Source: a virus
Lineage: Duplodnaviria; Heunggongvirae; Uroviricota; Caudoviricetes
Strand: one strand, 5' to 3'
DNA: 4,313 nucleotides
Virus record (IMG/VR): IMGVR_UViG_2648501669_000005
Positions 746-4,313 of this stretch are shown here, one piece after another (position 1 is the stretch's first letter; every line of letters begins with the position of its first letter). Under the pieces are notes generated by a model, which was not told the DNA's origin, did not search any database, and saw only the letters and a list, made by a program, of their open reading frames with translations. The position numbers and the translations under genes were made by a program.

Positions 746-3175
746 ATGACAAAACATATAGTAACAATAGAAGGGGATAATAAAGGTCTAAGGAGAAGTA
801 CCAATGAAGCCGCCGACCTTCTCGATAGTTTGTCTGAAAAGGCAAGTAATATTGATTTTGGTGGTGGCTTATCTGGTCTGACTGGATCTCTTCGTGGGAT
901 CGCTGGCTCTGCTGGTTTGGCTGCTGGTGGTATCGGCTTAGTTGCGACCGCAGTGGTTGCAGCCGCTAAAGCTGGCGCGGAATACGTTAAACAATATTCA
1001 GAAGTATCTAAGGCGACCGGACTCTCGATTGAATCCCTTCAAAGACTGGAAAAGGAATTTTCTGGTACTGGCCTAACAGTTGAAAAATTCGGTGATATCA
1101 ACAAAGACACCTTAGATAAGATGGGTGATGCATGGGCTAACGGTGGTGGTATTGCTGATGACTTAGAATCGGTTGGTCTTAAGTTAGAAAACTATGCTCA
1201 CTTCATGACAGATCCGCAAGGTGGTATGAAAGCGGCGATCCAAGTGTTCTATGACATGAAGAAAGCCGGAAAATCAATGGCTGAAATCAAGTTCATGATG
1301 GAATCTTTAGCCAGTGATTCAAGCCATATGACCAGCCAGCTTGAGAAATATAATAGTGCTCAAGAGGCGATGATCGCTATTCAGAATCAATCTGTTAACG
1401 TCACCGAAGAAAACGCTAAAAAATATGATAAATTTTCTCAGAATATTAATAAGCTGGAAAATAACCTGAAAGGCGCAGCCATGACCATTACTGGTCCTTT
1501 GGTTGATAGCTTAAACTGGTTATTTGAATGGTTTAATATTGATTGGGAAAAGAGTTCTCTATTCAGGGCATTAGACCGTCTGAATAAAGAAGGTAAGACC
1601 GCAACTGGTGGTATTCTTAACACCAACCATAAAGACGCTCAAAAGATTATTGACAAGTACAATAAAGAAAAGCGTTGGAATAATCTAGCAGATTGGGAAA
1701 AGGCCGCGATCCGTGGTGCTGGTGTCGATCCTCGTACTGCTGGCTTTGATGTAGAAGGATTTAAGAAACGTTTTGGTGGGTCTTATAAGAAAAATGGTGC
1801 TCTGATTGTCGTAGATGCTGGTGAACATCTGACACGCAAGGCAGATCCTAACACTGATTTAACTCTACCAAATAAACCAGTAAGACCAGAATCATTGGGT
1901 AAATCTGGCAACGAGAAGAAAGCCGAGGAAGAAGCACGCAAGAAAGCGGAAGAGGCAGCTAAAAAGGCTAAGGAAGCCGCAGAAAAAGCACAGAAAGAAC
2001 GTGAGGATGCAATCAAGCGTCTGAATGCACTTGATGTTAAATTGCAAGGGCAAGTTGCAGCGTCTATTGCTTCTCAAAACAAGCAGTTAGAAGCCAGCTT
2101 GAAAGATTTGGATACTGCTTTAGATCTGGGCTTAATCTCTCAGCAAGACGCAGCCGCGAAACGCCAATCCTTAATCGATCAGAATACTGAAAACGTATAC
2201 AAGATGATTTTAGGTGCTGATCCGGTTGATGCTCTGAATGCTTTAACACAATTGCAACAAATCAGGGATAATGAGTTAGAAAGCCATAAACGGTTACTTG
2301 ATGGTAAGGCTATCTCCTACGAAGAATATATGCGTCGTGTGAATGATACCGAACAAAGTTATTCGCAGATTGAAGATTCTTTGCATGGAATGGATGGTTT
2401 TAAAACCAATCAGTTGACCAATAGCTTAGACTATCAGGACTCAAATAATCCGTTTGCTAAATTTAATGCAATCGATAAAGAGAAATCGGAAGCCGAACAA
2501 GATTATAAAACCGATAAACTCAAGATTGATGGGATCACCGATCCGGCTAAACGGATGGAAGAATTAGAAAAACTCAATGAAAACCATCAAAAACGAATGG
2601 CTGCAATTGAGAAGAAATATGCTGATGCTCGCCAGTCAATAGCCGATGATATGTACGGCGGTTTTGCTGCTGCAATGACTCTCTTCGGGCAGGAAAACAC
2701 TAAAGCTATGCAGATGGCTTTCAATGCTCATAAAGCATTCTCTATCGGACAAGCGACGGTGAACATGTGGACGGCTGCTACCGATGCATGGAACGATCCG
2801 ACCAACGTAACCACAGGTCAAAAAATCGCTGCTGCTGCATTGGCTGTTTCTCAGAACATGGGGAACATCGCAAACATCAAGTCTACTAACGTTAGCGGTA
2901 TGGCTCATGATGGTATCGATAATATCCCTCGTGAGGGTACATGGTTGCTTGATAAGGGTGAACGAGTAGTTGATCAGCGTACTAACGGTGATTTGAAAGA
3001 CTTCCTTGCTGCTCAAAAATCAGGCGGTGGCAACTCTCAGCCGATTGAAGTTAACGCACCTTTGAACATTAACGGCAACGTTAATAGCTCAGACAAGATG
3101 GTCATGGATGCTATCAAACGTCACGCTAAGTTAGTTGCTCAGGCGGTAGAAGACGCACAACGCCGTAAGATGTAA
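746..3175 (+). CDS. phage tail tape measure protein (tail length determinant), 809 aa
   Basis: Largest ORF, directly downstream of the chaperone pair. It has a Gly/Ala-rich hydrophobic segment near the N-terminus (GGGLSGLTGSLRGIAGSAGLAAGGIGLVATAVVAAAKAG), a central Lys/Glu/Ala-rich predicted coiled coil (KKAEEEARKKAEEAAKKAKEAAEKAQKERE) and a C-terminal hydrophobic Ala/Gly-rich segment. This composition and position are characteristic of tape measure proteins. Confidence 0.85.
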   Translation: MTKHIVTIEGDNKGLRRSTNEAADLLDSLSEKASNIDFGGGLSGLTGSLRGIAGSAGLAAGGIGLVATAVVAAAKAGAEYVKQYSEVSKATGLSIESLQRLEKEFSGTGLTVEKFGDINKDTLDKMGDAWANGGGIADDLESVGLKLENYAHFMTDPQGGMKAAIQVFYDMKKAGKSMAEIKFMMESLASDSSHMTSQLEKYNSAQEAMIAIQNQSVNVTEENAKKYDKFSQNINKLENNLKGAAMTITGPLVDSLNWLFEWFNIDWEKSSLFRALDRLNKEGKTATGGILNTNHKDAQKIIDKYNKEKRWNNLADWEKAAIRGAGVDPRTAGFDVEGFKKRFGGSYKKNGALIVVDAGEHLTRKADPNTDLTLPNKPVRPESLGKSGNEKKAEEEARKKAEEAAKKAKEAAEKAQKEREDAIKRLNALDVKLQGQVAASIASQNKQLEASLKDLDTALDLGLISQQDAAAKRQSLIDQNTENVYKMILGADPVDALNALTQLQQIRDNELESHKRLLDGKAISYEEYMRRVNDTEQSYSQIEDSLHGMDGFKTNQLTNSLDYQDSNNPFAKFNAIDKEKSEAEQDYKTDKLKIDGITDPAKRMEELEKLNENHQKRMAAIEKKYADARQSIADDMYGGFAAAMTLFGQENTKAMQMAFNAHKAFSIGQATVNMWTAATDAWNDPTNVTTGQKIAAAALAVSQNMGNIANIKSTNVSGMAHDGIDNIPREGTWLLDKGERVVDQRTNGDLKDFLAAQKSGGGNSQPIEVNAPLNINGNVNSSDKMVMDAIKRHAKLVAQAVEDAQRRKM

Positions 3176-3177
3176 TT

Positions 3178-3225
3178 AAAAGCCCCCATAGTCATAAATA
3201 ATCATAAAACTATGGGGGCTTTTCT
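3178..3225 (+). terminator. perfect 14-bp inverted repeat hairpin with an 18-nt loop followed by TTTTCT; candidate intrinsic terminator or attenuator, or an RBS-sequestering structure
   Basis: AAAAGCCCCCATAG (3178-3191) is the exact reverse complement of CTATGGGGGCTTTT (3210-3223). The loop is tcataaataatcataaaa. The T-run is short (4 T). The GGGGG of the 3' arm doubles as the SD of the ORF at 3226. Confidence 0.45.
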
Positions 3226-3786
3226 ATGTTCAAATCCAAGAATATTAAAATCACAGATTTTACTCTTAAATCAAAACAGCCTTTCTTCAAGGCGCAATCT
3301 ATCTCCGGTAAATTTCAACGTCGCTTTACTGGCATTCATTTTTACGAAGCAGAATTTACCGCGAATTACATGGCTCAGGATATTAACGAAGTAAAAGAAT
3401 TTGTAGCACGTCACCTTTTTGGTCGTCCTTTTAGTGTGCCACTGTCTTACTTTTCAAAATATACAGGTGATGTACGCCAGATGGTTACGGCTGCTGCTGG
3501 TACTGCTCGCGGTGGGCGTAAGGTGAGAATCTCCAACTTCACCGGAACACTGAAAGCGGGAACTATCATCCAGTTTGAGAACCACAAGAAAATCTACACG
3601 ATCACCGAAGATGTGAAATCAGGTGGCGAAATGAAACTCTTCCCTAATTTGCGTCAGAACGTCCTGGCTGGTGAGGTGATCAAGTATCAGAACGTAGAAG
3701 GTGAATTTGTTCTCAAAACGGAAAATATCGATTGGAAGATCGCCCAGATTGGCAAGATGAAATTCGAATTAGTGGAGAATGTATAA
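3226..3786 (+). CDS. phage tail component of unknown identity, 186 aa (position of distal tail / minor tail protein)
   Basis: Complete ORF starting 7 nt after a GGGGG SD, immediately downstream of the tape measure gene. Its stop overlaps the next start as TAATG. Function is assigned by synteny only. Confidence 0.55.
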   Translation: MFKSKNIKITDFTLKSKQPFFKAQSISGKFQRRFTGIHFYEAEFTANYMAQDINEVKEFVARHLFGRPFSVPLSYFSKYTGDVRQMVTAAAGTARGGRKVRISNFTGTLKAGTIIQFENHKKIYTITEDVKSGGEMKLFPNLRQNVLAGEVIKYQNVEGEFVLKTENIDWKIAQIGKMKFELVENV

Positions 3787-4112
3787 TGGCAACTATTCAG
3801 GAATCATTCAGCAAACTATGCACTAATCTGGACTTCATCGAGGTATACAACGACCAGACAGGTCAGAATGTGTCTAGATTGACTCTACCGCAGCTTTTCT
3901 CTACTGGCTCGATGTTTCACATTATCGAAGTGATAACAGCGTCAGGGGACGTTCTACGGCTTACAGATGGGTATTTCGATTTGGACTATAACGGTTTTAC
4001 ATATCTCGCAACGGGTGATTTTCTTCAAATCTCATCGAATACCGAAGAGAAGGAGATCAACAACAACGGGATCAACGTAACTGTTTCTAACGTTCGCGAA
4101 GAATACATTTGA
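3786..4112 (+). CDS. phage tail protein, 108 aa as encoded; probably 3'-truncated by the IS insertion (stop codon TGA is supplied by the IS terminus)
   Basis: ATG at 3786 overlaps the upstream stop (TAATG) and is preceded by GGAG at 3774-3777, so it is preferred over the in-frame ATG at 3732 given in the ORF track. The reading frame ends ...GAA TAC ATT TGA, where TGA is the first three bases of the IS end (TGAAGTGG...). Confidence 0.55.
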   Translation: MATIQESFSKLCTNLDFIEVYNDQTGQNVSRLTLPQLFSTGSMFHIIEVITASGDVLRLTDGYFDLDYNGFTYLATGDFLQISSNTEEKEINNNGINVTVSNVREEYI

Positions 4113-4313
4113 AGTGGTTTACTGAATTTGGCCACCTGAACAGAGGTGATATGCTCACCTCAGAACAACACAGGTGCCATAATGAAAAAAAGAAATTTCA
4201 GCGCAGAGTTTAAACGCGAATCCGCTCAACTGGTCGTTGACCAGAATTACACCGTGGCAGTACCAACCAGCCCTAACTAATCCGTCCACACCACAACGCA
4301 GCCCAGGGGCAAA
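4110..4313 (+). mobile_element. left end of an IS3-family insertion sequence (IS911-like): terminal inverted repeat, leader and start of orfA; extends beyond or is broken before the window end
   Basis: Begins with 5'-TG (TGAAGTGGTTTACTGAATTTGGCCACC...), typical of IS3-family termini. About 70 nt downstream is an ORF starting [26 protein letters not shown], which I recognise as the N-terminus of IS3-family OrfA (IS911-type). GC content is visibly higher than in the flanking phage DNA. Confidence 0.6.
4182..4280 (+). pseudogene. 5' fragment of the IS3-family transposase orfA (32 codons, then premature stop)
   Basis: ATG at 4182 is preceded by AGGTG. Translation is [32 protein letters not shown]. 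An intact OrfA is roughly 100 aa with a helix-turn-helix after this point. Here the sequence diverges after about 4260 and reaches TAA at 4278-4280. Confidence 0.45.

Follow-up and report, generated by a model that had tools for sequence, protein, structure and literature searches.

A conserved RNA hairpin that sequesters the distal tail Shine-Dalgarno sequence and carries a T4-late-promoter-like box in its loop in an integrated siphovirus-like element of Escherichia coli

The junction between the tape measure and distal tail genes in the window, by which we mean the whole 4,313-nt stretch of DNA analyzed here, encodes an RNA hairpin that pairs the Shine-Dalgarno (SD) sequence of the distal tail gene and carries an ATAAATA box in its loop. 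We consider the best explanation of this palindrome to be a translation mask of the T4 e/soc type combined with an internal restart signal, a reading to which we give about an even chance of being correct. In T4, the ribosome-binding sites (RBS) of e, soc, 49, and I-TevI are sequestered in long transcripts, and RNAs initiated at late promoters lack the 5′ strand and are translated (PMC3014915). The structure described here is closest to the T4 e/soc control hairpins, and the T4-late-type box within the loop is a new element. The loop ATAAATA is also the most informative feature of the site, and was not picked up in an earlier note on this DNA.

Pairing and conservation of the junction hairpin

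The ORF list and profile searches identified the window as a siphovirus-type tail module. It contains a tail assembly chaperone (55–363), a T-like ORF (393–734), the gene for an 809-aa tape measure protein (746–3175, + strand; PHROG tape measure families, best E = 8.8e-64), the gene for a 186-aa distal tail protein (3226–3786, + strand; PHROG 1302 distal tail protein, E = 1.5e-16) and, downstream of the latter, the start only of a DUF2163 baseplate-hub gene. Distal tail homologues are 186 aa long with an invariant M1.

Inverted-repeat searching and folding placed a perfect repeat with 100% complementary arms of 15 + 15 nt at the tape-measure/distal-tail junction. The 5′ arm AAAAGCCCCCATAGT (3178–3192, + strand) begins 2 nt past the tape measure stop codon TAA (3173–3175), exactly as the earlier note had it, and is followed by the 16-nt loop CATAAATAATCATAAA (3193–3208, + strand) and the 3′ arm ACTATGGGGGCTTTT (3209–3223, + strand). 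The palindrome had been described as a perfect one of 14 bp around an 18-nt loop; it is indeed present, but its arms are 15 nt and its loop 16 nt. It had also been called very unlikely to arise by chance, and this held up. The repeat at 3178–3223 is the sole long perfect one in the 4,313-nt window, and across 200 dinucleotide-preserving shuffles of the window (loop 3–40) the longest perfect repeat was 12 nt, compared with the 15 nt observed. The folding energy calculation suggested at that time gave −24 kcal/mol for the hairpin RNA (z = −6.7), with an equal fold in 0/200 shuffles. The core stem has 11 bp, of which 7 are G-C pairs, at −19.2 kcal/mol, and reaches 15 bp counting the A/U pairs. 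Rfam covariance models run against the whole window returned no match at E ≤ 1.

The 3′ arm contains the sequence GGGGG (3214–3218), with the ATG of the distal tail gene 7 nt on, at 3226. Since GGGG(G)T is the usual SD type across the element in which the junction lies, the distal tail gene has its real SD in this arm, as had been proposed. In read-through RNA this SD is fully paired (P(unpaired) = 0.00), and CCCCC within the 5′ arm (3183–3187, + strand) is the anti-SD segment. The earlier suggestion of an RNA hairpin that occludes the RBS is therefore supported, both by this complete pairing and by the compensatory and G:U changes described below that keep it. For RNAs that run from 3204 or 3208 to 3260, the predicted accessibility of the SD rises from 0.00 to 0.4–0.6. 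The predicted rise is smaller in a longer RNA (3206–3290), where folding gives weak pairing of the freed SD with the downstream coding sequence.

The same junction is found in ~56 of 5,426 complete E. coli genomes at 88–100% identity. Our comparison set drew its junctions from the genomes of 11 E. coli, from contigs whose distal tail proteins are 47–91% identical, from 41 IMG/VR loci, and from one GTDB locus, the last being distant and the only one returned by a scan of GTDB genomes. The 20 junction variants, which come from E. coli, Salmonella, and metagenomes, fold alike in every case (20/20), at −17 to −31 kcal/mol, and hence the conservation that the earlier note had proposed to look for is present in E. 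coli and Salmonella relatives even though the arm sequences differ. These variants include GCCCCCATAGT/ACTATGGGGGC, GCCTCC/GGAGGC, GCCCTC/GGGGGC (with a U:G pair), GACCCCCTAGTT/AACTAGGGGGTC, and ATACCCCCTAGTT/AACTAGGGGGTAT, and a 62%-identical relative has arms AACCCCC...GGGGGGTT. A MAFFT alignment of the E. coli and Salmonella hairpins (A3) misaligned both arms, so a covariance-model alignment was used. The final version (A6) is a redo at a stricter threshold of one whose minus-strand and unrelated hits had been filtered by hand (A5). In A6, 98.5% of cells pair compared with ≤62% in slid controls, 3 pairs are altered on both sides (a number reached in 2/500 shuffles), and the covariation score is 0.113 versus 0.039 (0/500 shuffles). 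Adding L017 and L018 brings the number of pairs with double changes to at least 5. Several lineages (L010, L032, L018) also have one-sided C-to-T changes, which leave a U:G pair in the sense RNA only. Compensatory changes together with G:U changes specific to the sense strand point to selection on RNA pairing in the mRNA sense, acting on a hairpin at the tape-measure/distal-tail junction.

The same substitutions bear on whether the site is instead a DNA palindrome bound by a dimeric regulator, or an extruded cruciform, as the earlier note had allowed with its protein-binding palindrome. The arms are perfectly two-fold symmetric in the window, and the covariance model scores the minus strand too, as it would for any palindrome. 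However, the arms differ by clade with pairing kept (GCCCCCATAGT, GACCCCCTAGTT, ATACCCCCTAGTT, AACCCCC), and the one-sided C-to-T changes break the symmetry of the DNA while maintaining U:G pairs in sense RNA, so we regard a DNA-level role as very improbable.

The lengths of the C and G runs in the arms vary (CCCC, CCCCCC, GGGGGG) in L025, L041, L047, L031, and L030, which results in a one-base bulge; this homopolymer variation may be sequencing error or slippage.

The loop box and its relatives across the element

The first eight bases of the loop (3193–3200, + strand) read CATAAATA in the window and GATAAATA in most relatives, and depart from the T4 late promoter TATAAATA at −13 alone. Every E. 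coli and Salmonella copy has ATAAATA unchanged in the loop, whereas the six bases that follow it are variable, and the 3′ half of the loop differs among relatives (AATCAT, ATCATT, ACAGCT, CATCAA). A direct repeat within the loop that had been noted previously (TCATAAA..TCATAAAA) is present in the window but confined to a minority of copies; most relatives have TGATAAATAATCATAAAA instead, and ATAAATA is the conserved part. T4 late promoters consist of TATAAATA at −13 to −6 without a −35 element, depend on gp55, and vary mainly at −13, where the variants are mostly A (PMC2988020).

The box is one of a family that stands before most of the element's transcription units. The intact 34.7-kb element L069 contains 12 ATAAATA boxes, all in its 5.2 kb of intergenic DNA and 0 in its 29.5 kb of coding DNA. 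Shuffled L069 intergenic DNA gave a mean of 3.5 boxes (sd 1.8) against these 12, a comparison to be read knowing that AT-rich heptamers are fairly frequent in AT-rich intergenic DNA. Start codons lie 27–71 nt downstream of 10 of the 12 boxes and in their orientation, and the genes ahead of boxes are terS-like, hyp4, a Rha-type regulator, terL, distal tail, hyp16, hyp3, hyp7, and hyp20. Seven of the 12 are exact copies of TATAAATA and the other five differ only at the first base (−13). In 46 kb of flanking host DNA the exact TATAAATA occurs 0 times. Divergent gene pairs have one box per strand (terL/hyp7, and the lysozyme/distal-tail pairs of more distant relatives). The boxes thus resemble T4 late promoters in their exact 8-mers (7/12), in the restriction of the remaining differences to −13, in having no conserved −35 or other upstream positions, and in being co-oriented with genes behind leaders of ~20–65 nt. 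Unlike T4 late promoters, they occur in a 35-kb integrated element with no detectable gene for gp55, gp33, or a sliding clamp, and with G/C at −13, where the common T4 variant is A.

We also considered other identities for the box. A sigma-70 reading was rejected, as no hexamer in TATAAATA retains both the −11A and the −7T of such promoters and there is no −35. A simple promoter scan made no sigma-70-like call at the hairpin site. A reading of the loop as an IHF site was dropped on inspection.

The combination of a box with an SD hairpin recurs. Using a script that searched for a box together with a hairpin spanning the predicted +1, we found this layout at five other sites, namely at terL, hyp16, hyp4, the post-hub junction (L042/L044/L047), and in L014. 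The post-hub hairpin has an unrelated stem, with SD GAGGG in its 3′ arm and AATAAATA in its loop. The module at terL lies in a divergent region with no co-directional gene ending nearby. In the T4-like DNA of the Escherichia phage DCP80 record, the script also picked out a box with a start-codon hairpin immediately before the gene annotated as soc.

In relatives with 47–50% distal-tail identity (L012–L014, L056–L059), the distal tail and hub genes make up a separate unit that diverges from a lysozyme gene, and the intergenic region of 52–57 nt carries a TATAAATA-like box on each strand. In L014 the SD regions of the two directions together form a 10-bp inverted repeat, GCCTCTTATT/AATAAGAGGC.

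These features suggest the following mechanism. On RNA read through from the tape measure gene, the SD GGGGG would be paired with CCCCC, and translation of the distal tail gene would be poor. With its GC-rich stem and U-rich tail, the hairpin may in addition halt some of the polymerases or shield the upstream mRNA at its 3′ end. The loop box (C/G-ATAAATA), placed at −13 to −6, would act as a T4-late-like promoter, for which the position of the box and T4 spacing predict a transcription start at 3206 (+ strand; PMC2988020). A transcript from ~3206, ~6 nt past the box, would begin in the last bases of the loop without the 5′ arm, exposing the SD. Such a restart RNA would be translatable and would cover the distal tail, hub, and tail-tip genes. 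The function of the loop box as a promoter, the existence of a factor that reads it, and any termination at the hairpin are what we infer from sequence.

The site shares with T4 e, soc, 49, and I-TevI a stable helix that pairs the SD in the long transcript, and a TATAAATA-type box sited, here at the sequence level only, so that its transcript would lack the 5′ strand. The arrangement differs from these T4 cases in that the box is in the loop, whereas the T4 box is in the 5′ strand; the hairpin here has C or G at −13 and a terminator-like U tail; and the setting is the siphovirus-type tail operon of an integrated element that yielded no gp55 and whose promoter use is putative. The restart reading is weakened by two of these points, namely that no gp55-like factor was found in the element and that −13 is C or G at the hairpin site when T4 variants are mostly A.

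If it is correct, the T4 device of an RBS mask with an internal late promoter operates in uncharacterized integrated siphovirus-like elements of E. coli and Salmonella. The question would then be what reads T4-type late promoters where gp55 is not detectable, with a bearing on phage-satellite and phage-phage interactions. The box family provides a directly testable map of ~10–12 transcription units. If the hairpin part alone holds, the site would be an intercistronic control hairpin of an ordinary kind in a tail operon, though a well-supported one.

Termination and translational coupling

Sequestration of the SD is itself compatible with both partial termination and translational coupling, which are viable as explanations of the hairpin. 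The first, of which the earlier note had raised the partial terminator, holds that the site is a plain partial intrinsic terminator and 3′-end stabilizer that ends the chaperone/tape-measure transcript and lowers distal-tail transcription, with the SD overlap and loop motif being incidental. Like the intrinsic terminators of phage late operons, the hairpin has a GC-rich stem with flanking A/U tracts right after a stop codon. Its 11-bp GC-rich core (−19.2 kcal/mol) is followed by UUUUCUAU, with 6 U in 8 nt, and the U-rich tract TTTTCT (3220–3225, + strand), which is the SD-to-AUG spacer and a possible terminator tail, has a TransTermHP-style tail score of −4.68. The T run was correctly described as short; it is 4 nt here and 4–5 nt in all E. 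coli and Salmonella copies, kept even in L003, where the 5′ A run is non-complementary. Elsewhere in the element, too, genes are followed by large-loop hairpins with T runs, the tail-tip gene being one such case.

Post-stop hairpins also persist in relatives at 43–56% distal-tail identity, and this too fits a terminator or stabilizer. L015/L016 (56%) and DCP80 (43%) each have a short hairpin right after the tape measure stop. However, these distant hairpins have no U tract and leave the SD outside, and the DCP80 junction has no box. That of DCP80 is GGGGC-TTCG-GCCCC, at the same junction, of the kind of the T4-family C(UUCG)G hairpins that protect mRNA 3′ ends. The window hairpin shares with such intercistronic hairpins the conserved position after the tape measure stop, but it exceeds them in length, takes in the downstream SD, and has an AT-rich loop that is large and contains a conserved box. 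Because distant relatives keep a post-stop hairpin but leave the SD outside it, protection of the mRNA 3′ end or termination may be the older function of a hairpin at this junction.

Other features fit a terminator poorly. The loop is 16 nt instead of the usual 3–8 nt, and a simple consensus scan with a loop limit of 3–8 nt reports none at the site, the loop being >8 nt. The U tract of 4–5 nt doubles as the SD-to-AUG spacer, so its conservation is otherwise explained. The invariant ATAAATA in a variable loop and the recurring layout of box plus SD hairpin are left unexplained. The GC-rich stem and U-rich tail thus keep partial termination possible, though as a full account of the site we find it unlikely.

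The second alternative is that the hairpin serves only to couple translation. A ribosome ending at the tape measure stop would melt the 5′ arm and tie distal-tail synthesis to that of the tape measure, with no internal promoter. In L019/L020 and in every E. coli copy, 2 nt separate the stop codon from the base of the stem, and the SD is otherwise fully paired. Given the established size of the ribosome footprint, a ribosome halted at the stop codon would be expected to overlie much of the 5′ arm. In L054, L017, and L018, however, the stop-to-stem distance is 6–13 nt, which puts the C run beyond the likely reach of the ribosome, and the hairpin is still kept. Coupling also leaves the conserved loop box unexplained, along with the box-plus-hairpin modules that have no nearby co-directional upstream gene end, such as that at terL. 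On balance we consider coupling by itself a doubtful explanation.

The integrated element, phage DCP80, and the window copy

The junction lies in a 35-kb element of E. coli that is integrated by a serine recombinase in hicB or ycdX, depending on the strain. The element carries terS, terL, portal, capsid, a siphovirus-type tail, lysis genes, the serine recombinase, and a Rha-type regulator. Intact copies are present in E. coli 266917_2 (NZ_CP026723.1, 237.2–271.9 kb) and HCP5S3_I4. We found no recognizable repressor, replication module, or sigma factor in the element (L069 5206–39948 in hicB; L064 plus L001). For gp55/gp33 or another sigma factor in particular, Pfam, PHROGs, PDB sequence search, and phmmer --max on six-frame ORFs all returned none in the element. 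A gp55 could come in trans, or could have diverged beyond the reach of these searches. The Gp38-like adhesin was examined as a possible T-even link and gave no support, as its best matches are Stx-phage adhesins at 45% identity.

A segment of L064 (~17870–17973) upstream of a 48-aa ORF has a good sigma-70-type promoter (TTGACA, 17 nt, TATGAT) that overlaps the palindrome TTGTCAAGGGGCATTGACAA, with a second TTGACA nearby. These sequences may constitute the element's operator/promoter region.

Among cultured phages, the element terL and distal tail have a single relative, a 26-kb segment within the record for Escherichia phage DCP80 (PQ671644.1; L066–L068), a Gaprivervirus of 141 kb with this siphovirus-like structural module at its left end. 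The record contains three copies of rIIA and duplicated exonuclease subunits, primase, spackle, and ndd, and looks like a scrambled assembly with co-assembled T4-like DNA. In the 26-kb segment there are 11 exact TATAAATA boxes, each in the orientation of the genes there, and the segment itself encodes no gp55. Its distal tail gene (16905–17462) is unannotated. Megablast of the window against cultured phages matched only the IS element at its right end, and distant blastn found short tape measure fragments only.

A broader and more speculative possibility is that the element is wired almost entirely with T4-type late boxes and stays silent until a gp55-encoding phage (T4-like, rV5-like, or ViI-like) infects, at which point late expression would follow. 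It would then accompany T-even-type viruses as a satellite or piggy-back phage, or else serve as a decoy defense, and the hairpin would gate the tail genes to late transcripts. We think this scenario improbable as it stands. Our search of the literature turned up no relevant work on T4-late-promoter satellites or on temperate siphoviruses with TATAAATA.

Terminator-like hairpins with T runs are present in L001 at 8368–8559, 10115–10162, 14424–14476, and 23680–23721. Their positions are after the capsid gene, before the tail-fibre and Gp38-like genes, and after the tail-tip gene. Looser TAAATA boxes, for example TGTAAATA and TCTAAATA, come after several of these hairpins.

Copies of the element often carry IS insertions, and the window has one at each end. 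Positions 1–17 (AAGTTGGAGTCATTACC) are an IS1 terminal inverted repeat, the same 17-mer that ends annotated IS1 copies in L001 and L063, and all E. coli relatives align to the window from base 18 onward only. At the right end, hub-gene homology stops at ~4109, where an IS3-family (IS911-like) end starts with TGAAGTGGTTTACTGAATTTGGCC... (window 4109–4313), and the baseplate-hub gene is consequently truncated in this copy. With IS1 on the left and the IS3-family element on the right, the window is a tail-module fragment between two IS elements. The IS1 at the window start adjoins AAATAAAC and splits a box-like motif, TCTAAATA, that in intact copies sits before the chaperone gene. In the IMG/VR locus L031 (1–99), an IS1 end (..GTAAGTTGGCAGCATCACC) adjoins the base of the 5′ arm in place of the tape measure gene, and the hairpin and distal tail gene are intact.

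Within the tail module of the window, the chaperone ORF and the T-like ORF are ~30 nt apart without overlap, and the usual −1 frameshift arrangement (G/GT) is not evident. The T-like ORF contains an imperfect 11-nt inverted repeat (403–413/485–495).
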